From Amphiscolops sp. MND2022 (Eukaryota): DNA of 64,000 nt. The first letter of the stretch is position 1; each line of letters begins with the position of its first letter. The stretch is from positions 27,778,001 to 27,842,000 of the forward strand of contig OZ076409.1 in assembly GCA_964187785.1 (NCBI GenBank). The letters run 5' to 3'. The notes beneath the pieces are model-generated. The model made no database searches. It saw only the letters and a list, made by a program, of their open reading frames with translations, and was not told the origin of the DNA. This document shows, piece after piece, positions 15,527 to 51,900 of this stretch. Made by a program: the position numbers and the translations under genes.

Positions 15527-15726
15527 NNNNNNNNNNNNNNNNNNNNNNNNNNNNNNNNNNNNNNNNNNNNNNNNNNNNNNNNNNNNNNNNNNNNNNNNNN
15601 NNNNNNNNNNNNNNNNNNNNNNNNNNNNNNNNNNNNNNNNNNNNNNNNNNNNNNNNNNNNNNNNNNNNNNNNNNNNNNNNNNNNNNNNNNNNNNNNNNNN
15701 NNNNNNNNNNNNNNNNNNNNNNNNNN
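15527..15726. other. Assembly gap (200 N)
   Basis: Run of N. Confidence 1.
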
Positions 15727-33900: not shown

Positions 33901-36900
33901 TTCATGACAGCTTCTATTTGTTTTGAGCCCGCCCTTAGTCAACATGATTCAATATGAAGTTGAATTATCGTAGTTTTGTTCTTTTGCATACTTTTTACGA
34001 TGTTGATTTTGGCACTTGTTAGATTTCGAATTTCTTGCGAGAAGTTCAACTCCGCTCCTCTTTCAACTCCATTCATTTGTATGTACTATGTACAATGAAT
34101 TTGTGTGAGGCTGGACAAATGAGGGGAAAATTGGACCATGCTTCGTATTCCCCCTAAGCCGCCGTGGGCGTGGTATAGAGGAACATTGTTCAAATACCAT
34201 TATGTCGGCATCATTTGCGATGAAATCTTGGTCCAATAAAATAATTGATGTCGACATGATTCGATTTTTTACATTGGCGGGCAGTTGAAAGTTGCTCAGT
34301 ATTATTTACGGCAGATAGAATTTACGTTAAATTAATGGTCTTTCTAGATGATTTTAACTTGTTCTAGGTGTGAAATGTTGCCATTTCAATTCAAAAGTAT
34401 CAAAAAATCATTGTATATTTTTGATGGACGTGTCAAAACGATTGTGGTGTCAAAACTTTGTAAACATCAAATTCTTTCATTCGAGGAGGGATAAGAAACC
34501 AGGTGTACCTGGGGGAATAAGAATTATGGTCTGAAAAATTGTCGGAATAGTTGTTTGTCCTGAATTTGAGCAAATTTGATGTACCAGAGTGAATTTCAGG
34601 CAATCACGTTCGAGTAGAGGCAATAGTGAACGACACAGTGGGCTGTCTGTGTACGGGGGCCTATGAAGACCAAGAGGCTCAGATCGGAGTCATTTACGGG
34701 ACCGGAACCAATGCATGTTACATTGAGAAGCTGTCGAACATCAAAACTCTCAATCTGGATCCCAACGAAAGTGACCAGGTATACAAAATTGCTTCTTGAC
34801 CTATTATCAAAATGTTATTAACTCTGACTTCATTGGATGTTATCTGTTGTGCTGTTTTTTCTTAGGTCAATCTCATTGCTAATGGCCTTTGGTGTCTCCT
34901 TCAACTTTCAGGTTTTTCAAAAAACGTTTCAGTCAGGATGATTTATAAGTCAGGATAAATGATAAGTCAGGATCATTTATCAGACTACTTTACTTGCCGA
35001 CTGGGAAATGAATACTTGCTGAATTGATTTGTATGATATAATTGTAAGATGTCATTATAAGCTATTGATTCGTTGCGTTACTGGTCAGTTTCAAAACCGG
35101 TGCCTCCACATATCGCCTCAGCTCGGTATACCGAAGATTAGGGCTTCAGCTACCCACTACGTCATCATCCCAATCGAGCTGTAGTTCCGATGCTCGGAAG
35201 TGTTGAATGAACACACTTCACCTGTGTGTCTCACTTTCCGAAAAATCAATTTCGTTTTTTTTCCTTACTTGCGTACACCAAGTGTATTCTTTTCGAACCA
35301 GTTCAAAGTGAATTTGAAGTGTTGAAACCCTTATTGCACATGACTGAGTGTGAAGTATGTAGTGACGAATCTAGAAGTAGTGTATATAATCGTATTTGAC
35401 GCCAGCGCGAAGGGCGCAAGCTGGCTCACTTCGTTCGCCCCCTTGCTTCGCCATTCGCTTCGCTCATGGCTACTTCGCGCTAACGTCAAATACGATTATA
35501 TACACTACTTCTTTACCATCCTTACACCTATCGTTAAATACGATTTCTTACACTACTTTGGTAATACTCTACTAACCATGTTTTAGAATAAAGCTGAAAT
35601 TCTTTTGAACTGCTAAATTTCTATGAATTTCACTCTGTAAATGTAAATATTGATTTTCAAAAGAAATTTTTTCAGACTGCTAATTAGTTGAGAAGGTAGA
35701 TGTAAATATTGATTTTCAAACGAAATTCTTCCAGACTGCCAATTAGTTTAGAAGGTAGATGTAAATATTGATTTTCAAAACAATTAAAAAGAAACGAGAA
35801 AAACTTGAGCACTGAAGTGAATTTAATTACACCAAAAATCAATAAAAACACCCAACATTTTCAAAAATTATCTCCACTTCTACTGGGTTTTAAGAGATGG
35901 GGTTTTCACCATTGTGATCCTCTCTTCCATACGAGTAAAAAGAGATGTCGATGAGCAAAATCCGCCGAGTAGTTAACAAAACCCATCACCAAACGCATTC
36001 ATTTGAAACAAGATAAAATCAAAAAATCTAATTTGACCATGCTGGTTATTTGACCATGCTAGTTATTTGAGCATGTGCGATTTTTGAATTACGCGCGCTC
36101 CTAGGTATGGATAGGTGGATAGCAAACCATTGCACGAATCAAAAAATCTAATTTGACCATGCTAGTTATTTGAGCATGTGCGATTTTTGAATTACGCGGG
36201 CTCCTAGGTATGGATAAGCGGATAGCAAACCATTGCACGAATCAAAAAATCTAATTTGACCATGCTAGTTATTTGAGCATGTGCGATTTTTGAATCACGC
36301 GCGCTCCTAGGTATGGATAGGTGGATAGCAAACCATTGCATGAATCCTCCAAACATTCATTTGTATTATTAATTACAACTCAGTCGCCACACTCTCTTAT
36401 CAACATGAGTGACAATCTCAAAACGAATATCAACCTTGCCAAAAAAATAAAGAAACTCGGATCCCGTCAGGAGGCTGTTTTGGCTGGTGTGGCAGACCAA
36501 CTGACAGAAGAAGAGAAGGCAAATATCACCATTGCTCTAGGCAAAATGGATCAGCTCTCTAACAATATCAAGATTGAAGATGATAAACCCACAAATCAAA
36601 CCACATCGGGCGCACCAAATTTTGAAGCCTTCTTCTCAACATTCAGAAACGAGCTTCACGCATATGAGGAATCAGACAGAATGGACAGCTTGATGTTTTC
36701 ATCAGGTGAGTATCTCCAATTCAAGACAAGTCTCTATGACAGCTTTGATCCGATGTACTACAAGCGCTATATCTCGCAAATTTACAAATTTGAAGGTCAA
36801 GCCAACCGAGTGTTGCTGTTTCTTGCTGCTGACCGAGGTTTCATTTATTCCAAAATGAAAGAAGATTGTCTCCTGAAAAATATCACATGGAGAGAATATC

Positions 36901-39900
36901 TCGCTGGACAGAAACTCTCATACACGACGGTGAACAACCATATTCAGTTTTACGATCTGGTGGAACTGTACCCGAGAGTGCTCATATCCGGAGCAACCAA
37001 AACAGAATGGTTCAAATTCACAAATCAATTCAAAGGGGCGATAAAAGATGACGAAAGCATGAAAACGAGGTTGGCAGTCAGTTTAAAGGTATTCTTAGAG
37101 CAAGATGGCTCTTTTGAAGACGCCTGTGAAAACATTAAAATTTAATATTCCCCTCTATCTGTTTGGTGAGTTTGAAATGAATTTAGTCTATGGTCACAAT
37201 GTTTTAGTATCAGTTGAAACGAGACTTATACATTATAGCCTATCTCCACATGTTTAAGTATCCGTTGAACGGAGATTTATACATTATAGCCTATATCCAC
37301 ATGTTTAAGGATAGGACTTACCATCTTACCATGGTAATAGTCGCAGGTTGGCGGTCATATCATAATATTGTGTATAATCATGTATAATGTATAAAATACA
37401 CCGGAAAAAATATATTCAAATTTTCAGTTTTTTCTAGAATAACTGTACAGAATTAAATAAATCTACTAAGGTGGAAGAATACTGATGAAAAAAGACAATC
37501 GAATTTTATGTTTTTTGTTCACCAAATAAAGGTTGCCATTTTCAGCACACAATACTGTGTTGCATATAATCATTTTATTTGTATCTTGACTATTTTCTGT
37601 ATTATTCGGGAAAACATATAACGACTGACTTTTTGGTTCTGTTGCTGTGGAAGAAAGACACCCCCCTTTAATTGGAACATTTGTAATACTCTTTTATCTA
37701 GTTACTGAATGTTTTCGTGTGGATTCGAAAAAAGAGTCAGTATTATAGTCGCGTTTCACTTCATGATGTGCCGGCTCAAAACAAACACGAGACGCCAATA
37801 TGCTTATAACCAAATAAACGTTGATAATACTATTCAAATTTAAAACATGTAGTCTGTGATTATCAGTGTAGGTTTACCATTGCGCATGCCTATGTGTCTT
37901 GTATTTTTTAGTCATAGACATTTTCATGTCCAATTAAATAAAGAATGAATTTAACATTCAAAGAATTTGTCAAGAAATATGGATTAAAAAACGAAGCAAC
38001 TTCTAATGTAAAAATAAAAGGTATACTAGACATAATAAATAGACATATTCATGATTCCTGTAAAGTGTACATGAGAGATGATAAATTTACAACTGATTCA
38101 GGAATTGTAAATTTACACCCCTCAGTGGGAACACACTGGGTCATGTTTATTAAGGAATATTACTTCGATTCATATGGCTGCCCACCTCCAATAAACATAC
38201 TCAACTATCTTAATATTGGTCAATACTCAGAATATCAAATTCAAAAAAATGATAGCTATTGCGCAGCGTATTGTTTATATGTTTTATATCTTACACAAAG
38301 TATAGGCTTTAAAAATGCAGTTTTGAGTTTATACTATCAGACATTTTGTCATTAATAAATGAAGAAAATTAATACTTATTCAGCTCAGTTTAAAGTCATA
38401 TATCCAAAAGATCATTCAAAAAATAATAATACGAATGGTATTCCGAATGAGAAAATATTATCAAAAGATAGACAAGAATTTATAAATAACATAGCTGCTA
38501 GTGGATTTAAACACTTTCATGCATAATAAATGGATCTATCAAACTTTGTAACTTATGATAAAAAGGAATCTCTTTTGCTGAATATTGCTAAATCTAATCA
38601 AGAAATTGTTGAAAATACTCATTCGAAACCACAAGAAACTCTAGAATTTAAAATGACTAAACAAAAAGAATCTTTTTCATTCGATGTTCCTCTCCAACTA
38701 AATGAAAATTGGATGATGGGAGTAACAAGTTTAGAAGTCTATAATACAGTTTATAATATCACTAATAGCAATAACAAACTAGAGATTGTTCTGAATGATC
38801 AACAACTCAAAGAACTTAACCTTGACAGTGAATTATTAGTGTCTGTCGAAGAGTTATATAAGGCCTATTTTGTTAAACCTTATAAGTATAATGAATTTAT
38901 AGAAAAGGTTAATAAACTTATAACTAATAGTTATTCTAAAAAGAAGAAACTTACTAGAGTAGATTTTACCTATTTAACAAAGATAATTGAATCACTTAAT
39001 CAAATATATAAAGAACGCCTCAATCAAGAAAGAATAATTCAAGCATACAAAGACCACCTAAAACTTGAAAAAATAAATTGGGACGAAATAAATTGGGAGG
39101 AAATAAATTTGGATGAAATAAACCAAGAAGAAATAAACCAAATAAATCAAATAAATTTACCCCCCTTTGAAATTATTGAAAACGATTTCTTTGGAATACA
39201 ACTAACACCAGGAGTTTATGAACTAGTTGATATAAATAATGCAATTAAACAAAAAATTCATGAAAGTGATTATGATTTTAAAATTGATATAATACCCGAC
39301 ACAATATCAATGAAATCAGTTTTAACAACCTCAAACTCTATTCATTTTAACTCCAGACTTAACATTCTTTTGGGATTTACAAACAAGGATTACCCACCCG
39401 GAACTCACACTTCAGAGAAACCAGTTATGATAACGACCACCGATAAAGTTCACCTGAAGTGCGACTGCGTAGATGGTTCAATTGTTAATGGAATTAGAGA
39501 ACAAATCCTGTTTAGTTTTAATCTTAGTGCTCCTCCGGGATATAAAATTATAAATAATCCGACTACTGTTTTGTACAAAAAGATAAACAAAACAAGATTA
39601 GACCAGATACAATTTTTTCTTGAAGACTCCAACCACAACCCAGTAGATTTCAACAACGAGACACTCACATTCACAATTCAAATCATCAAGATTTAATATA
39701 AATAAATGAGCTTCAATAAATTTAAAACTAAGTCTTATTGTGTTGGTGGTAAACACTATTCTGCTACAACTAATATTCGAGGAGATATTTCTCAAAATAA
39801 AAAAACTGGCATGCCAGTTAAACTCCTACGTGGTGTGTGTGTAACATGTAAAAGAAATAAATCCCTTATAGTATCTGATCAAACTATTTCAGCCGAGGGA

Positions 39901-42900
39901 TTGGGTGACTTCTTTAACCATATTGGCAAAGCTGCAAAGAATGTTGGAAAGAAAATACTCAATAATCCTGGTAGGGCACTAGAACTCGCAGCTAATATTG
40001 GTACCGCAGCAGCAAGTAAAAATCCACGAATGATAGCTGCAACTGCTCCTGATATTATAAAATTTGTTCATCAAGGAAAAGGCTTATATTTGGGAAAAAT
40101 TCATTAAATTTATGGTTAATAAATGTATTCAATACATAATCGTGATGATTTAGAAAAATTAAAAAAATTGCAAAAAACAAAATCTTCACTCCACAAAGAA
40201 AGATTAAAAGAGAAACTTGGGAAGCAAGACTTTCATTACGATATGGAAGAAGTTTTTGAACCCGTTACTGAAAACCAGAAACAAAACCAAACTAAACAAC
40301 AAGAACTTTCTGAAAAGCAAATACAAGCGCTACGTGATTCTACTCAAACTACAACACAAGCAATCGAAAATCAGGCAAGAGCAATAGAACACAGTAGTGA
40401 TATTTTAAATAAAAATTTACAAAAATCTATTAAAGATGCTAATTCCAACCAAGTAGACAGTTCAATTGTTAAAACAGTTTCCAACCTTCTCAATGACAAA
40501 AACAAAAGTCAATTTAGTTTAGAACCTGTTTTAGGAAGTTCAAATTTCTTCACAATTAACCACACTGATCCTCAACTAGTACAAATCAAAGGTTCAACGA
40601 TGACTTTCCAGAATGGTAACACATATAATTTAAATGATCCGGATCTTTCATCTTTTATAACTAATGCACAAATAGATAAAAAAATACAAAACGAGAATCT
40701 TATTTATAATTTTTTAAAAGATATGAAATATGATCTTAATTATGGAGATAAAAAATCAAAGAGGTATTATTTCATTAAACATTTGATTAATCAATACACA
40801 TATCAACAATCCCAATCGGGAAGTGGATTAAATCAGTATATCTTCCTCCCATCTGACCCAGATGAGCTTGTAGATCAACTTAAACTAATCGTGTTAGAAA
40901 AAGTAGGAGGAAATGATAATCCTATGCTGAGCGAACAAATCATAGCAATTGCTGATAAACTTTTACAATACCAATGCATTACAACAAATCAACATCAAAA
41001 CATTGTTTCAGCTTTTACTAAAAAGGATCAGTTTGTGGATTAAAGATTTTATACTCTGGATTAGATTCATTGCACAGTTTATACTTACATCCGTTTTTAT
41101 CTTCTAGCCTGTTTATTAATAAATAGTTGTATTTTTCTTTCCATGCCTCCCTGCACAAACTTTTAAATTCATCATAAGACATATCAAAACCTGCAATATC
41201 TCTGTATATATTTTCTACATCTTTCAATGTTTGTTGAAATAAAATTATGATATTACTATTATTGCGTATGGTGCGTTTAGGCAAATCGAAATATGACTGT
41301 GATAAATAATAAACATCTAAATCATTATGTCTTCCCCTAGTAAAAAATGGATCTATTAATTTCTGATTCGAGTCTAACATATCATCAAATACAACAACAA
41401 TTTTGAAAATCTTGTATTGTTCTATCTTCTAGATCGTCTTCCACTGAAACGTCTTCTAGTTGTATGTTCTCGTATTGTTCCGGAGATCTAGTTATGATTT
41501 TTATTTGTTGTTCTGGGTTATCCAAGCGAATTAATTGTAATTTGTTTAATAACAAAAAAGTCTTACCACAAAATGAAGGACCAACTATTAATGTTCGATT
41601 TAATGCATCAGCCTCAATTGTATTATTTGTATCAGTTTTATGAATGTTTTTTATATGCTTTGACAAATATGTTTTATTGAATTCACGGTTACAAAATTCA
41701 CACCTCATCTTCCTATTAAAACAACTAATACACTTAATATATACATCACCATTTTTATATTTATAGAAATCTTCTTCAGATTTAAAAATATTACACCCTT
41801 TACAGATTTTTTTATTACCACAATTTAAACTGTTCATTTATTTAGTAAAATTCCGTTGTAAAATGAATCACTAAGACGATTTTTTGTCACTAAGACCCAC
41901 CTCTTAGTGAATAAGAAACACTAAGAATCACTAAGAGTCACTAAGACCCACCTCTTAGTGAATAAGAAACACTAAGAATCACTAAGAGTCACTAAGACCC
42001 AACACTTAGTGATAAAAATACCACTTTCAACCATTCTAAATTATTAAATGAACCTGAAACAAAAAATAGCTAAAGAAATATTCTCTCCTGTAGTTAAAAA
42101 ATTTGACCGCATCCAAATACAAACTCACTATAAAGATGAGTGTTGGAGTATTGATCTGATAGACCGATCTAGCTTAGCAAAATACAACAAAAACTACAAG
42201 TTTATTTTTACAATAATTGACAATCATACTAAATTTGCATGGGCGATTCCTCTTAAAGATAAATCAGGAAAAAGTACAACGACTGCATTCAAGAAACTAA
42301 TAGAAACTAGTAAAAGAAAACCTGAAAAAGTGTGGTCGGATAGAGGTAAAGAGTTCTATAATAAAACATTTTTGGATTTTCTTAAACAAAATGAAATACA
42401 AATTTATTCAACTCACTCAGATTTGAAAGCTGTTTTTGTTGAACGTTTCAATAGAACATTATTAGATCTTATCAAAGAACCGATGTATATTGAAGGTAAA
42501 GCTTGTTGGTTGAATCATATTAACAGTGCTTTGGATAAGTATAATAATCGTGTGCATACCACAACCCGCATGACACCGTTTGAAGCTAGTAATAAACCAA
42601 TAGATCCACCTACTTTTGTTAATAAACCGAAACAACCCAAATTTCAAGTGGGAGACTATGTAAGAGTTCCTGATAAAAGGAACATTTATTCAAAAGGCTA
42701 TACAACAAATTGGAATAGAGAACTTTTTAAAATACAAAAAATTAATCCAACTAACCCCATAACCTATACTTTAGAAGACGAAAACAACGAGCAAATAGCA
42801 GGAAAATATTATGAACAAGAACTTTTAAGAAGTGTATTCAACTTTGAATCTAATAACAAAACGTTAGAAAGTATGAATATTTTCCATCAGTTTGAGTAAT

Positions 42901-45900
42901 TATGCTAAAATAAATAAGAATGTCATTACATAAGTTTGGTTATAGTGCTGAAAGCCTACAAAAAGACAAGATTGAGAATCTTGAAAAAGAATTGGAGTCA
43001 CAAACCAAATTATTCAACTTAAAACTTTATGATTTGTCTAATAATTTAGAAAATTTTAATAACCTACAAGAAGTTATATTTGACAACGGTGAAACAAAGG
43101 TATTAGTCAATGCAAAAACGTTTGTAGACATAAACAAAAATATAGAAGATATAAAAATAAATTTGAAATACTTAGAACAAGATATTAAAAATAAATTATT
43201 AGAAAAGAAGAAAGAAATAATTTTGGATGCTGCTAAGTTGGTAGAAGAACAACAAACCATTTTGCGAAATAGTTTCGAGAGAAACCTTATTTCAGAATTG
43301 GAAAAAAGCAAAAACCAAGCAGTCAAGGATGTTATACAACTACTGTATAGCAAAGGATTGTTTGACTCATTTGAAAATAAGGACCAAATATTCCAGTCGT
43401 ATTTGACCTTCTCAAACCAATACTTGCTTGAAAAATACGGAACAGAAATAAAGACATCAGATGGTGTGTATTATTTATCAGACTTGGACTATTCAACGAG
43501 AGAAGATATTGTGAAGTGTTTAAAAAAAGATGAATACAAAGATATAGTTGACCTTAAATATAGAATGAAACTAACCACGAGTGAAATCAATTTCATACTT
43601 TTTGACTAAATAAATGAATGAAAAATTATACCCCAGTTTGCAACCACAAGTAGATAGTTTAGAGCAACACCTAAACCTACGATTGAAAGAAATAAATAGT
43701 TTCAATAATTCAATTCAAAATATAAAAGATATTAAAAATTTTTATAATCATGAAGCCAAAAAGTATAAAAAGAAAAGTAAACAATACAAGCTCATAAATT
43801 GTTTAATACAATCTGTTGATGGTGTTTCAATACTAGCTGTATCATCAACATGTGTCACTCTCAGCATTACTGGAGTTGGACTGGTTGTTGTCCCCGTTGC
43901 TAGTGGTATTGGTGCAGGTTTATGTATAATCAGTAAGCTTCTTGGTGAGTACCTGAAAAGAAAAGAACAACACAATCTTAAGAAATATACCCTTGCTGGT
44001 AGAACACTACATGATTTCTGTAAACTACATTCAAAATGTTTAGAAGACAATAAAATCGATCTGAATGAATATAACAAACTAAAACAATCTTATGATACAT
44101 ACAAAACGAACAAAACTAAACTAAATTCTGAGTTTACTTTTTTAGGCTAACATTATTTAGTAAAAACAATATCAGTATAAATTTTAAATCATGATTTTTT
44201 GTATATAAATGGAATTATTTTCTTTGAAAAATAAATATGTTCTCGATAATCCAATTCATAAAATTGATTTTATTAAATACTCGCCTAGTAGTTTAGCTAC
44301 AATCAACAACAATAATTCAAATATTTCCATCATTTTCCCAAGAGAAGATGCTTATATTTGTTTACAAAACTCATACATTAGTCTAGAATTTGAAGTTCTT
44401 AAAAACGATAACACACGCTACGTAGACAACGACCAAATAAGCTTGGTCAACTTTGGGCCTGTTGCTTTATTTAGTGAAGCTAAACTTGTGACATCATCAG
44501 GAAAGCATCTTGAGAAAGTTGATAACCTACACCCAGTATGTTTAATGTACAAGCTTTTGACTAGCAACCAACAAACAAGTCAATTGATGTACGGATTTGA
44601 AGAATCAGAAAACACCAGGCGATTAGAATTAACAAACCACAAAACAGAAAAAGGAACCTTTTTTGTTAGAATAAAACTAAAAGACTTGTTTGGATTTGCT
44701 GATCAAGAAAAAATAACTTACGGATTGGGTTATTCTCTGACATTAAAACGTAATAATAATAACGACCCTATCATCAGGGACAACGGTGTAGATGCTGCAA
44801 AAATAGATATAAAAGATATTGCTTGGCACATTCCACACTATGTACCCAGTATGGAAAACCAGCAGCTTGTCCTTAATCAAATATTAGATAAAGACCCAAC
44901 CGAGTTGTATTATATAGAACGAACTGTCTTTAGAAAAGATGTTAACACCAATAATAATTGGACATTTGAATTAGGCAACAGTGGAGAATCGACACCAACA
45001 TACGTGATAGTTGGATTTCAAGCTAGAAATAAAATTGATTCACAAACACATAACAACTCAACATTCGATCGACTTTCGGTTAGTAATGCAGTTTGTAAAA
45101 TAGGATCAGAAAAATATCCCGATGATGGAATAGAATGTGACTACGACCGCGACAAATACGATCAAGCTTATTATGAAATCGAAAACTTCTATAACTTACA
45201 TTCTGAATCTAATCTACTCAATCCGTTTATCAGTTTGCACAAATTCCGAACGAGTTACAATTTTTATGTATTTGACATATCTAAGCAAAAACCACCTATA
45301 GCATCTCAACGTATTAGATTAGAATTTAAATTTAGTGCTGCTTTTGGTGTAGCAGATTATGTAGCTTATGCCCTTGTACTAACACCCAAGTTAATAAGTA
45401 TTAGTAGTGACGGACAAAGACACTTTGATCTTTTATAATTCATCAATTCATCAATATAAAAACATTAGATGAAAACGAATCTGTAATTAAAAAATTGAAA
45501 ATTTATTTGAAATAAATAATATATAATAAATGAAGTACATAAATAATAAATTTTACACTGAAGTTAATAATCCAAAGTACATTATCAATGATGGTAAAAT
45601 TCTGAGAGAAACATCTCCTCCCAAGTCATTGAAATCTAAATATGAAGTTATGAATGGTGTTAAATTAGATAAAAAATCAAATATAATTGAATTAGATGAC
45701 GGATCTCTTCATATTGTAACGAAATAAATGGATGAAGAAGAATTTTTAAATCCTACCATGTGTAGGAGATGTAATAGAAATGCTCTACTAGAATACGAGT
45801 ATGAATTCACTTGTTATGTATGTGAATTCAATGTTATAAAAACTAAAAATCAATTGACAAAAGTTCAAAGAAAAAAGAATATCAATTTTAAAGGGAGATT

Positions 45901-48900
45901 AACATATGCAACTCCGAAAATAATTGGTATTTGTATGGAAGTTAATTCATTAGTTCAAACCAATGATATAGACGTTCTCGCAGCTGTCCTGACATATCTT
46001 AAAAAGAAGAGACTAAATATCTTAGAAGAAATCCTAAACAAGTTTGATGACATGCCTGATGATTTCGAAAAAAAATGTCTTCGCTGCATCTGAAGGAATT
46101 CACAAAGCTGGAGATTATGCACTTAGGATGATGAAGTGGTTGGTCTCGGCTAGGTATTATGAAAACATTAACTATTATGACTTGATAGCAACTACTTTAA
46201 GATATATGAAGGGGGAACAGCTCTTTGTGAGGAAAGAAGTTTTCTTGTTTATAAATGAGCGATAGTGAAGGTGAAACAATTTATCCTGAAAGTGAGGTTT
46301 CTGAGGATGAATCTCTACATAGTTCAGATGAAGACTTTATCGATGATTCGGAGAGCGAAGATGAAGACTATATCCCCCCAAAACGGAAGCGGAGAAATAT
46401 AGAAATTATTATAAAAATAGAAAAATGAAAAAACAATTGAATAAAAATTTATATAGTAAATGGATGAAACATATCATAGGAAATATTGTGAAGCTTGTGA
46501 TAAACAAGTTCACACATCATCGTTTGCAAAGCATCTGAAGTCTAAAATTCATTTACAGAAAAATGTAGGTGTAATCCCACAAAAACCCAGAGTTCTACTA
46601 GCAGTGGAAGAACAACAAGAACCTAGAGTTCTACCAGCAGTGGAAGAACAACAAGAACCTAGAGTTCTACCAGTAGTGGAAGAACAACAACAACCTCGAG
46701 CTCGACCTATCCCCCCAAAACGGAATCGGAGAAATATAGAAATTATTATAAAAATAGAAAAATAGAAAAAACAATTGAATAAAAATTTATATAGTAAATG
46801 AACACAACAAATACCAAATATTGTGAAGTGTGTGATAAACACATTCACACAGCATCCTTCTCGAGACATGAGAAATCTAAAATTCATTTACACAATATTG
46901 GCGTTGTACCGGGAGACCCTATACAACGAAGGGCGCGATCGGTCCCAACACTAAAACAATTAGCGAGAGCTAAAGTCAATCTCTCAGAAAAAGAGTTGGC
47001 AAAACATATGATAAATCCATACTACTTCTCTAAAAGATATGAACCTCAATATGATGTTAATCTTGATCAACACCACCCCAAACACTTAAATAGTAAGATA
47101 ACTGTCAAACCTAAATATGATCTCCCTATTGAATTGCTCGATCTGAATAATATCTTCAAAGAAATGTCAGCAATATATGCTAGGTTAATTGAGCAATATA
47201 AATTCAAATATCAAGTTGTCTTCTCAGTTATTTTCGATAAGGAGACTCGAGATGAGTTAGAACAGTATGTTAGTTTGGAGGTCAATCAGAGTTTAACTTG
47301 GAATGATATTGAAAAGTATGATCTAGAAGGAAAAACAAATGCATTGATTGAAAATCTGGAGATGAAAGATAGTGGTTGGAGATTCTGTAAAATTGCATCG
47401 ATGACTATATACTTTTATAAAACTGTTGAACTGAATGGTAGCAGTTATGTTAAAATACCTCTTAGAAGCGCTGCTATTTTAAACATTGAAAATAATGATA
47501 AGTACTGTTTTCTATGGAGCATCTTAGCTCACCTTCATCCTTGTGAGAATTCTCACCCTAATAGAGTTTCAAACTATCGAGAATATTTTAGAGAATTGAA
47601 AACAGATGGATTGGAATTCCCTTTTAAAACTATGTTTTTTTAAATGTTTTTAAATTTGAAAAGATGAATAATCTAGCTATTAATATATTTGAGTTACAGT
47701 TCTATCAAGAGGGGGAAAAGTGGAAACATAAATTGATTCCTATTGAGGTTAGTGAGAACAATTCAGAAACAGTGATTGATTTGGTGATATATAAAAATCA
47801 CTATGCCCTCATTAAAAAACTTCATGTATTCTTAGGAAAAAGGGATTCAAAATTTGTTTGTCGTCGATGTCTAAGTTGCTTTACAAATGAAAACGTTTTG
47901 GTGAAACATACTGAAAGATGTAAGCAACAAGATATCACAGCTATCAGAGTTAGCAAGGATAGTCATTTAATGTGGAAGAAGCACTTTCATAAGATCCCAC
48001 TATATTTCAGGATCTATGGTGATTTCGAATGTAATAATAAAAGAGAATATTCTAACATAGGTAATAAAACCACAAACATTTTCAGACAAAATCCAATGTG
48101 TAATGGATTTTACATAGTATCTGAGATGGATAATGTTCTACAGTCTGGATGGCATCTCTCGCCCTTTGGAGAGGATAATGTTGAATGGTTTGTTAATGAA
48201 GTCATAAAGATTGAGAATAAGATGAATTTCTATTTTAAGAATACAAAGAAAGAGATTATGATGACTCAAGAAGATGAGGAAGATTTTAAGAATAGTACTC
48301 ATTGTTGGTTCTGTGAACTTCCCTTAGATGGGAGAGCTGTCAGAGATCATTCTCATCTGACTGGTAGGTATCGAGGGGCTGCACATGAAAAGTGTAATAT
48401 AAATGTGAAACAGAAACAGAGTAATTTCATACCATTCGTGTTTCACAACTTCAGTAACTACGACTGTCACTTGTTCTTTAAAACATTGATTGATAAAAAA
48501 TCAGATAATGTTCCCCTTCATGTCATACCCAAGACAAATGAGGAATATATATCAATTTCATATGGTTGTATTAGATTTATAGATTCATATAGATTTTTAT
48601 CAAGTAGTTTAGATGGGTTGGTTAAAACAGTTGATGAGTTGACAATTCTGAAGAGAGAGTTTCCTGATAATTGGGAGCTGTTGAGTAAGAAGTTGGCGTA
48701 CCCATATGAATATTTTAAATCTCTTGATGATTATCAGTTGTCAGTTAAAGATCTTGTAAAAGAGGATTACTTCAGTAGATTGAAAAATGGATATCCTCAA
48801 GATAGTGAGATTCAGAGAACAAATGAAATCATTGAAACTTTTAAGATTAAAACTGGAAAGGAGTTGACTGAGTTGTATTTGAAAACTGATGTTGTTTTGT

Positions 48901-51900
48901 TAGCAGATGTGTTTGAGAAGTTCATAAAGGTATCATTAAACGAATTTAAAATCAATCCGTTATATTGTGTTAGTCTTCCTGGATATACTTGGTAATGTGG
49001 ATTGAAATATACTGGGATTAATTTGCAAACACTTCAAGATAAAGATATGATCTTAATGTTAGAGAATAATATTAGAGGTGGGATTTCATCTGTTATGGGG
49101 GATAGATATGTTAAATCAGATGAAAACAAAAAGATTTTATATATTGATGCTAATAATCTATATGGGTGGGCAATGAGTCAGTATTTGCCATATGATGATA
49201 TAAAATTTGATGGTAATGTTAAGTTGGAAGATATATTAGATACACCTGATGATAGTGAGGTTGGGTATTTTGTTGAAGTTGACTTGAAATATCCTGAGGG
49301 GATAAGAGAGAAGACTGTGAAATTCCCATTCTGTCCAGATAATAAGTTTTCACCTCAAGATAAGTTTACTGAGTATATGAAAAAAATGAAGCAGGATAGT
49401 TATGCTAAATGTAAAAAGTTAATATGTGATTGGACTGACAAGAAAAAGTATCTGATACATTATCGAATGTTGAAGTTTTATGTGAGACATGGTATGATTG
49501 TTGAGAAAGTTCATGAAGTGATTTCTTTTAAGCAGAGTAAGTGGTTGGAGAAGTACATTGATTTCAATACTCAGAAAAGAAATAGGACGAAAAATGATTT
49601 TGAGAAAGATTTTTACAAACTATTAAACAATGCGTTCTATGGAAAGACAATGGAGAATGTGCGAAATAGAACTAAGATCGAGTTCATTAAAAAAGATGAA
49701 GAAGAGAAGATGGTGAAGTGGCAATCTAAGTTGACGTTTAATGGGATCCATAAGTGTTATGAGAAATATGATAGTTTCACGTTTAAGATGAATGAGGTTC
49801 TGATGGATAAGCCAATATATCTTGGATTTAGTGTGTTAGAGTTGAGCAAGTTATTGATGTATGAAACGTACTATGATAAATTTCAACCTTACTTTGGGAA
49901 AGAGAATATTCAACTTCACTATACCGACTGTGACAGCATGGTATTAAGTATTAAAACTGAGGATATCATTAACGACTTACAAAATCTCAAAGATTTATTT
50001 GATTTCAGCAATTTAAACAGAGAGCATCAATTGTTTAGTGATGAAAATAAAAAAGTAGTTGGTAAATTTAAAATTGAAACGCCTGGAAGTATTTGGATTG
50101 ATGAATTTGTTTGTTTGAGAAGTAAAGCATATTCTTATAGATGTGGAGGTGAAAGTTCTAACAAACTAAAAGGTATCTCAAAATCTCAGAGTAAGAATAT
50201 TAAATTTGAAGAGTATTACAACTGTTTATTTGGGTGTGATTATCAAAGAGAATGTGAAAATTTTGTAATTAGATCTATAGATCATGATATGTTTCTTCAA
50301 AAGGTTACAAAGAATTCTTTATCTGCATTTGATGAGAAGCGATGTTATTTGAATAATATTGAGAGTATCCCTTGGATGTAATGTGAATATCCTTGAGTTT
50401 GAGTAATAACTAAATAGTATAGAAAGGGGGATTTGATATTAACTTGAAGGGTGAGCAATTGAGTGATGGGGCGAAGCGGAGCGGAGTAGTGTATATAATC
50501 GTATTTGACATTAGCGCGAAGGTCACCATGAGTGGAGCGAAGCGAAGCGAATGGTGAAGCAAGTGGGGGAGGTTGAAGAGTGAGCAGCTGAGCGAAGCGA
50601 GGCTGTGAGCGATGAGGCCGAGCCACGCTTGCGCCTTCGCGCTGGTGTCAAATACGATTATATACACTACTGCTGTAGTTCCGATGCTCGGAAGTGTTGA
50701 ATGAACACACTTCACCTGTGTGTCTCACTTTCCGAAAAATCAATTTCGTTTTTTTTCCTTACTTGCGTACACCAAGTGTATTCTTTTCGAACCAGTTCAA
50801 AGTGAATTTGAAGTGTTGAAACCCTTATTGCACATGACTGAGTGTGAAAAGCCGCATATACATTAATCGGTTACAATAATGTTCGGTAGAATTTCATGTT
50901 TTAAAACACTTCTTAGTTGTTTTGTAAGTGTTTCACTGGATATAGGCTGCCTTGAAAAATCAAATACCTAATAAGCTCTGCTCTTGGTTACGTACATGTT
51001 CCATACTTTGATCCAAAACACTGCGATCAAAACACTATCTTTGTCAACAGCGTTTGAGAAGATATTTTTTTCGCTCTCTTCAGTCAAAAATAGTCTCAAA
51101 CTAATTGAAAGTTTTTCAATTTTCAAATGTCATTCTTACAACTCGTACGAAACAAAGAAGTACGCAACGATGCTTCGACTTTTGCTTGAAGAAGCTGTTC
51201 AAGTGTTGAAAACCGATCAAAGCTTCCATTAAATATTGTCGAGATTCAAAATGTAAACTTCCTACATGTCACCACACTTTTTTCCTTAACCTGTAATTTT
51301 CAAATACTTCGATGACAATTGGTGCTTGCGGGTTTCAGTCTCCTCACGTACGTAGTAACATTGCTTATTGCTTACTATCATTACTGCTATATTTACTACT
51401 TATAGTAAACCTAATTCACAGTTGACTTCATCATTGGTTTTGGGAAAATCGACGACTTCTGAGCATGTTTTCACATGTCATGATTTTCAAATCGATCTTG
51501 CTGAGAAATGATATCTACAGATACCGAGGAAATAAAGTCTTCATAGTAGTTTGGGAGACTGAAAATGGGATTTTTTTTGCTGTTTCTATTCGAGAAAAAG
51601 TTTCAGCTAACCCGAACAAAAGCATATCAAATAGCAAGCATTCAGGAGAAAACGTTTTTCATTTTGCCTCTAAGCTTATGCACCGTCTGAAGTGTACACA
51701 TTAGCTGATTAAAAATTTGTATTCTAGTCCTTTGTGCTATAATGGGATTGATGTTAGGTTCCAAAAAGTAGAAAAAATTGGCTGTTGTTGTGATATGCAA
51801 TATTCAGTCTTGATAGTTGAAGGTCGTCTTACTGATTGTAACATTGTCACTGTTTTCATTTTGCGGACGTCAAGTGGATCTTTTTAAACAGTCTTTAATA

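Follow-up and report, generated by a model that had tools for sequence, protein, structure and literature searches.

Fold-back hairpin ends associated with the polymerase group in a Polinton of Amphiscolops sp. MND2022

A Polinton/Maverick element of 15,296 bp, with termini AGTAGT...ACTACT, was identified at positions 35376-50671 of a 64,000-nucleotide stretch of the 1.07-Gb genome assembly of Amphiscolops sp. MND2022 (GCA_964187785.1, contig OZ076409.1, positions 27,778,001 to 27,842,000 of the forward strand; this whole stretch is referred to as the window). Each end of the element was found to be a palindrome predicted to fold back on itself, with two arms that agree with each other and with mini-hairpin motifs biased to the strand that has its 3' end there. 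Judged from sequence, this type of end follows the group of the protein-primed family B polymerase (pPolB) and not the integrase or the capsid. Whether these ends are self-contained replication origins and caps, each forming a panhandle of its own, is evenly balanced on the evidence given below. A preliminary description of the window had labelled the element a Polinton-like virus, a label that is wrong in its narrow sense, as the presence of pPolB and an rve integrase places the element among the Polintons proper. The parts of the two ends are as follows.

35376..35509, minus strand (bottom, 3'-terminal): left terminal fold-back, predicted to form a Y from a 37-bp stem and two ears
35376..35412, plus strand: left outer arm, G at stem position 26, CC at 27-28
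35473..35509, minus strand: left inner arm, G at position 26, TT at 27-28
35426..35436, minus strand: ear cap, GAA triloop between tandem GA pairs
35455..35465, minus strand: ear cap, GCGAAGC mini-hairpin between tandem GA pairs
35530..35557, minus strand: third, degenerate arm copy inside the left end
50413..50440, plus strand: third, degenerate arm inside the right end, resembling the G-rich arms of sister families
50485..50671, plus strand (top, 3'-terminal): right terminal fold-back, stem of ~38 bp (arms 50485-50522 and 50634-50671) and two ears
50535..50545, plus strand: GCGAAGC mini-hairpin with tandem GA flanks
50590..50600, plus strand: GCGAAGC mini-hairpin with tandem GA flanks

Both palindromes, and the pairing of the terminal base by the stem at either end, were confirmed as first described. 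At stem position 26, G (35401) pairs with C (35484) in the left end and A (50510) with T (50646) in the right. At positions 27-28 the outer arm has CC and the inner arm TT; the strand ending 3' at that terminus thus forms G-T wobbles here, and the other strand C-A mismatches. GCGAAGC was located at 50537, 50542 and 50592 and its complement GCTTCGC at 35445 and 35457, with an additional GCGAAGC at 50471, just inside the element. When both strands of each end were folded as DNA, the 3'-terminal strand was the more stable at the left (-48.7 versus -45.6 kcal/mol) and at the right (-53.9 versus -49.6 kcal/mol), with z-scores of -12.0 and -11.1, respectively, and 0 of 200 shuffles equally stable. 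The predicted fold is a Y in which a long stem carries two ears, every ear having a GNA triloop in the pattern GA-NN-GNA-N'N'-GA. This pattern would permit tandem sheared G-A pairs, a geometry that the folding program does not model.

The sole common polymorphisms of the left hairpin were found in one junction CpG at its positions 40 and 41 (35376+39 and +40), with C-to-T in 22/67 and G-to-A in 24/67; the latter change yields a G-T pair on the 3' strand, and other CpGs of the hairpin barely vary. The right inner arm was found to be tandemly duplicated, together with ~65-85 bp of adjacent sequence, in copies L101, L106, L108, L123, L124, L130, L133, L136 and L138, and the duplications join at a short G-rich stretch that has microhomology to the third, degenerate arm.

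The element is one of approximately 70 insertions, a body-anchored pattern locating 72 left ends and a right-arm pattern 75 places. As the same ends are shared by insertions at different sites, the architecture is heritable and an artefact of assembly or of a single copy was rejected. A survey within this one genome yielded 190 hairpin ends distinct by flank, with outer arms defined by CC at positions 27-28. The arms matched perfectly over positions 1-26 in 168 of the 190. For 30 distinct outer 26-mers, agreement with the end's own inner arm over positions 9-26 was 513/540, compared with 398 +/- 9.5 for reshuffled inner arms (maximum 434 in 10,000); this reshuffling ignores relatedness, and most families bear the same arm at both ends. 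Agreement within an end can be separated from agreement between ends in the case of position 26 in the main family, two private changes and a 363-nt derivative (L200/L201), the two ends of which bear arms of different types, the outer arm of each agreeing with the inner arm of that end. Within stem positions 1-26, three private substitution events were identified in the main family (139 ends), a count that leaves out L121, with its terminal three bases lost, and the end replacements L143 and L156. Two of the events are mirrored in both arms of one end, with the other end unchanged (L073 at position 3, partner L119; L053 at position 10, partner L077), and the third (L044) is limited to the inner arm. 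Given a substitution rate near 7e-4 per site, the probability of two mirrored events by chance is, by our arithmetic, ~1e-7. Other copies keep their inner arms and covary within the hairpin, so that a lack of either, named beforehand as refuting what had been proposed from the window, was not observed. Such covariation alone is no proof of function, because template switching homogenises inverted repeats generally.

Agreement between the arms ends sharply at position 27, which is mismatched in 189/190 ends (CC/TT in 168, CC/TC in 14 and others in 8) and within this set is always G-T or G-A on the 3' strand. One end found afterwards (L267) has TC in its outer arm and is mismatched at position 27 all the same. 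No inner arm was called for eight outer-arm records, some of which are duplicates or degraded (4/30 in another tally). Along the arm, positions 1-9 and 20-25 are conserved and positions 10-19 variable. Changes were found in the inner arm only (14), in the outer arm only (6) or in both (11), counts which give no direction of copying, as the outer arms were chosen by pattern.

Several copies point to exchange between ends. A complete left-type hairpin was found at the right end of L143 and likewise of L156, in the latter with a crossover inside the inner arm, and a right-type hairpin was found at the left end of L086; these three would be consistent with a single strand whose two ends annealed, followed by 3' extension. 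In its loop, position 26 and third arm, the right end of the main family corresponds to a G-rich sister family, but positions 1-25 are of left type in both arms. The simplest explanation would be that the outer arm was copied from one end to the other and the inner arm was then copied from the outer. Small non-coding derivatives that retain ends were also identified (L134, L200/L201 and L141); the derivatives include a near-perfect palindrome of ~150 nt with two outer-type arms, the 363-nt element, whose two hairpins differ from each other, and an element of 2.9 kb.

The bias of GCGAAGC to the 3'-terminal strand, first noted in the window, was found to persist over 25 loop types. In a set of 25 loop clusters less than 80% alike, GCGAAGC was counted 40 times on the 3'-terminal and 0 times on the 5'-terminal strand (dinucleotide shuffles 3.1, maximum 10), and the capped GNA pattern 37 and 0 times, respectively (shuffles 0.5, maximum 4). 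The 3' strand was the more stable in 78 of 79 distinct hairpins. The right hairpin begins 104 nt past the polymerase stop codon, on the sense strand, and the left hairpin lies on the strand opposite to that of the first genes, so that the bias follows 3' termini and not transcripts. In protein priming, only the 3'-terminal strand serves as the template for initiation at an end. GCGNAGC mini-hairpins have been described as unusually stable, resistant to 3' exonuclease and present at single-strand origins of phages and plasmids (PMC13037366).

Flipped loop orientation, which had been put forward as a check, was seen in none of the 72 left ends or of the 88 right-type inner arms: GTT occupies positions 26-28 in 72/72 left inner arms and CC was seen in 0/88 right-type inner arms (body-anchored, duplicated arms included). 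Terminal resolution of the adeno-associated virus (AAV) type swaps the arms and inverts the loop, so that AAV ends undergo flip/flop; the finding of no flipped ends therefore disfavours it here. No head-to-head pairs or dimer junctions were found among the integrated ends located by left-end and related pattern searches. Run-on extension past the terminus was also considered and rejected, as the stem continues into the flank by 0, 1, 2 and 3 bases in 109, 26, 3 and 2 of 140 ends, which is near chance.

A natural cross between end type and gene content was available among related elements. From 68 integrase matches at 85-90% identity, 20 were taken, and their capsid proteins were found to be 84-90% identical to that of the element. 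Their polymerases were 49-59% identical in the best segment (18/20, with no match in 2) and lie in the opposite orientation. All 32 termini read in 19 of these elements were plain inverted repeats, none folding back: any inverted copy lying within 450 nt differed at 9 or more of 26 positions, and the capped GNA motif was absent. Polymerase matches were split into two groups, of 58-100% and 44-50% identity. Of 16 further near-group polymerases chosen by protein alone, 14 had an intact fold-back end, one a damaged one and one none within the stretch fetched; the plain-end motif was not found in six rescanned stretches of near-group elements. In ten hairpin-type elements read at full length, the integrase was 39-45% identical in six and 84-90% in two, with no match in two. 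End type, as read from these sequences, follows the polymerase group and not the integrase or the capsid, and a role in replication or end repair therefore gains support. The earlier suggestion that hairpins assist priming, protection or repair alongside pPolB stands to this extent; parvovirus-type priming with terminal resolution is unsupported.

End-to-end repeats in the main family are limited to 52 nt at 94% and 86 nt at 80%, and in two sister hairpin elements they extend to 282 and 344 bp at 99%. Searches with the arm pattern in other hosts gave one viral and three metagenome matches, none with a fold-back end, one of which resembles an outer arm without an inner arm. Relatives of the polymerase numbered 5,806 at E<=1e-30, the best 120 at 68-90% identity. 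No such hairpin was found within 3 kb of 14 IMG/VR loci with polymerases of 34-41% identity, a result that is uninformative as the termini were not located there.

The N-terminal part of the polymerase was modelled from one unbroken copy (mean predicted local distance difference test (pLDDT) score 63). Residues 25-153 of the model match little-finger domains of Y-family polymerases in 8 of the top 10 rows (Z 6.1-7.5), the best match having Z 7.5 and a root-mean-square deviation of 2.8 over 106 aligned residues. A Ser-Gly in the linking loop was present in 52 of 53 polymerase sequences. The little-finger fold is a described signature of PRD1-like terminal proteins (10.1101/2024.03.18.585575). 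The polymerase is thus predicted to keep an N-terminal terminal-protein domain and, given this domain, the Polinton very likely still primes with protein, for which the (AGT)2 ends are counted as further support.

The function put forward for these ends, as self-contained origins and caps, would operate as follows. During strand-displacement replication, a genome strand would be displaced as single-stranded DNA, and its 3' end would fold onto the inner arm, rebuilding a duplex terminal origin without the far end. Priming on the folded end would be carried out by the polymerase's own predicted terminal protein, and the mini-hairpins would cap the end and shield it from nucleases. The 5' arm of the new strand and the inner arm of the template would then compete for the same partner, with branch migration as a result, and because of this competition the polymerase could copy positions 26 to 1 from either arm, the mismatch at 27-28 never being rewritten. 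Homogenisation of the arms may take place by template switching or by a fill-in that halts on reaching the mismatch at 27-28, and this mismatch may in addition identify the arm that is the true end. The strand-specific motifs, the link to the polymerase, the retained protein priming and the small dependence on a long end-to-end repeat speak for this proposal, as do the copies in which the hairpin of one end replaced that of the other; its chance is about even.

Several points weigh against it. The function is deduced from sequence and predicted folds. The association of ends with polymerase comes from one genome and few independent recombination events, and, as the polymerase gene adjoins one end, linkage can contribute to it. 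The sister hairpin families also keep ordinary end-to-end repeats of 280-344 bp, so that the hairpin does not always replace a panhandle between the two ends. As the loop types are related by descent, their motif counts cannot be treated as independent, and the energy model favours the folding of G-rich strands whatever their function. A mean pLDDT of 63 and Z below 8 give middling support for the terminal-protein domain.

A role in end protection or repair only is possible but rather unlikely. The folded 3' end would shield displaced strands from exonucleases or damage sensing and would template lost terminal bases, with initiation at an ordinary duplex end or panhandle. The exonuclease resistance of GNA mini-hairpins (PMC13037366), the rebuilding of truncated 3' ends from a fold-back template by Streptomyces Tap (PMC5449611) and the private changes mirrored in both arms agree with such a role. 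However, a processive fill-in should continue into the body, and neither a run-on product nor head-to-head pairs were seen; the rabbit-ear form in Streptomyces is also not the form used in repair (PMC5449611). This explanation overlaps with that of self-contained origins and caps, the site of initiation being the sole difference. In a hybrid cycle, one strand would be primed by the terminal protein and the other would be self-primed or licensed by the folded rabbit-ear 3' end of the displaced strand, with resolution that does not flip the loop; such a cycle is similarly doubtful.

Self-priming from the hairpin is improbable. Here the second strand would be primed from the paired 3'-OH as in parvoviruses, either beside protein priming or as a substitute for it, and the ends would be resolved asymmetrically so that the loop retains a single orientation. 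The pairing of the last base favours it, as do the resemblance of the predicted Y with GA caps to the 3' ends of autonomous parvoviruses (PMC4513846) and the hairpin-priming model proposed for protist virophages as well as Polinton-like viruses (PLVs) (10.64898/2026.07.28.741278). Against these stand the constant loop orientation and the lack of dimer junctions described above, the retained terminal-protein-like domain, and no Pfam match to a Rep or HUH nuclease among 15 open reading frames (ORFs) scanned, with several ORFs unassigned. An EndoVII-like domain was considered as a hairpin-specific resolvase and rejected, as it was found in both polymerase groups.

It is equally improbable that the arms are inverted binding sites on double-stranded DNA for the polymerase, terminal protein or an origin-binding factor, their folding being incidental and their likeness due to generic template switching. 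The third, degenerate arm inside each end and the tandem duplication of inner arms in several copies are in line with binding sites, as is the division of the arm into conserved positions 1-9 and 20-25 around a variable 10-19, as in a bipartite site; template switching is described as homogenising inverted-repeat arms (PMC8604942). Nevertheless, the strand-specific GNA triloops with tandem GA pairs and the near-constant position-27 mismatch, with its G-T or G-A on the 3' strand, would be left unexplained. Lastly, service to the integrase or to packaging (excision, attachment or a packaging signal), or as RNA at the end of the polymerase transcript, is suggested by the place of the structure at the integration junction and by the right hairpin's position just after the polymerase on the sense strand, but is very improbable, as near-identical integrase and capsid modules have plain ends and very different ones hairpin ends, and as the strand bias tracks 3' termini at the left end too.

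The gene content of the element, with flanking features, is as follows.

35376..50671: Polinton/Maverick element, one of ~70 near-identical copies
35178..35375, plus strand: flanking duplication and 21-nt filler (177-bp unit 35178-35354, second copy 50672-50848)
36405..37145, plus strand: ORF of 246 aa, no Pfam family
37945..38355, plus strand: likely adenovirus-type maturation protease, a lead from feature search
38530..39696, plus strand: likely minor capsid protein, from position and size
41018..41837, minus strand: likely packaging ATPase, two ORFs in the window copy, P-loop in the upstream ORF, weak ATPase-type PHROG match (E 1e-5)
42048..42899, plus strand: rve integrase (PF00665, E 1.3e-12)
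44209..45438, plus strand: double jelly-roll major capsid protein (PF21738, E 1.7e-20)
46798..50381, plus strand: pPolB, three ORFs in the window copy (46798-47643, 47664-48995 and 49047-50381)

The product of 37945..38355 matched feature clusters with Peptidase_C5 (11% and 62% of members) at scores of 0.94-0.98, and Pfam and PDB sequence searches with it gave no match. That of 38530..39696 gave only viral hypothetical clusters in the feature search, with recognition below threshold. The polymerase and ATPase frames are both split in the window copy, and other copies have open polymerase frames of ~1190 or 1540 aa; the match to PF03175 has E 4e-14 in an unbroken copy and is weak in the split one. 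Frames of 1537-1541 aa were found in 17/150 rows, versus ~1190 aa elsewhere. In one copy (L250, G000:C12:58776900-58782600), a 346-aa intein with a LAGLIDADG homing endonuclease was read in polymerase motif C (Pfam Intein_splicing, Hom_end and LAGLIDADG_3), which suggests that a polymerase intein is polymorphic within a young family.

A perfect 6-bp target duplication was found in 64 of 68 paired copies. The window copy is one of the four exceptions, a 177-bp flanking duplication and a 21-nt filler taking the place of the 6-bp duplication, which from its sequence looks like a one-ended, host-repaired integration. L121, with its terminal three bases gone, is among the three further pairs. The element is a recently spreading virus-like transposon. 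Two sets of non-coding direct repeats lie inside its left end, at 35630-35790 and 36010-36345, with units of ~60 and 100-120 bp as judged by eye. The host genome is very rich in Polintons (14,078 first-look integrase candidates, 137 of them scored). Its polymerase groups number at least two, as do its capsid-integrase modules, and groups and modules have recombined. A run of 200 N at 15527-15726 of the window is unrelated to the Polinton.

In adenovirus, the displaced strand forms a panhandle that regenerates a duplex origin for protein priming, and one end can be repaired from the other. The Amphiscolops ends would likewise remake a duplex origin on a displaced strand, but the adenovirus panhandle needs both strand ends, whereas here each end could form a duplex alone. 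Parvovirus 3' rabbit-ears and AAV inverted terminal repeats share with them a Y-shaped 3' end with its last base fully paired. Parvoviruses, however, self-prime and resolve their ends by the Rep/NS1 nickase (PMC3187698), in contrast to the lack of flipping and of a Rep match among the ORFs scanned here. Bidnaviruses are described as having pPolB and no terminal hairpins (PMC4061559).

The closest structural analogue is the Streptomyces telomere, an analogy for which no homology is expected. This telomere (Tpg/Tap) belongs to a protein-primed linear replicon and has a 3'-strand rabbit-ear in which a terminal palindrome pairs with an inner one, GNA loops closed by sheared G-A pairs, and repair of truncated ends by fold-back (PMC4513846, PMC5449611). 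A 3'-strand fold-back with GNA loops closed by G-A was found here by sequence pattern and predicted fold. The Streptomyces system differs in its internal origin, in the patching of its ends by Tap, an unrelated enzyme, and in a terminal duplex of 13 bp versus 37 bp here.

Described Polintons/Mavericks (adintoviruses, Polintoviricetes) share with the present element pPolB, the rve integrase, the double jelly-roll capsid, the likely ATPase and protease, (AGT)2 ends and the 6-bp duplication (PMC8097293); they differ in that here each end folds on itself and the end-to-end repeat of the main family is short and imperfect. In nematode Polintons, as far as described, the polymerase has been swapped while the terminal inverted repeats (TIRs) remained conserved, whereas here the ends go with the polymerase. 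Terminal palindromes and the idea of hairpin priming are already in print for protist virophages and PLVs: in those of Halocafeteria, the palindromes lie at the termini beside the target duplication and are tied to particular replication modules (10.64898/2026.07.28.741278). They are, however, short and closely spaced (52 nt for one subtype, in a search that limited the gap to 10) and occur preferentially without pPolB (10.64898/2026.07.28.741278), as opposed to the loops of 50-190 nt, the GNA-capped ears and the pPolB with predicted terminal protein found here, for which covariation, strand bias and non-flipping were measured. The words "hairpin" and "palindrome" were not found in the text searched of PMC8097293, PMC12220804, 10.1101/2023.08.22.554363 and 10.1101/2023.10.06.561300, nor "hairpin" in that of PMC8502044 or 10.1101/2024.03.18.585575. 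No description of GNA-capped fold-back ends in pPolB Polintons was found in the literature searched, which was mostly open-access and did not include the original 2006 Polinton description; this architecture could already be present among TIR sequences given in supplements or in Repbase. The ends described here are a well-supported new variant of Polinton ends, the function of which we infer.

Polinton replication has been inferred from gene content. The same integrase and capsid occur with or without hairpin ends, and hairpin ends occur on very different bodies; this natural cross therefore makes polymerase-origin specificity testable with short natural oligonucleotides. End-to-end repeats as short and unequal as those of the main family would escape screens that demand near-perfect TIRs of 100 bp. 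Should the hybrid cycle be true, this would be a lineage of eukaryotic viruses that is protein-primed and has telomeres in the style of parvoviruses or Streptomyces, its polymerase and cognate ends being transferred together as one module among unrelated capsid-integrase bodies. The findings suggest convergence on a GNA-capped single-strand telomere in Streptomyces, parvoviruses and one Polinton lineage.

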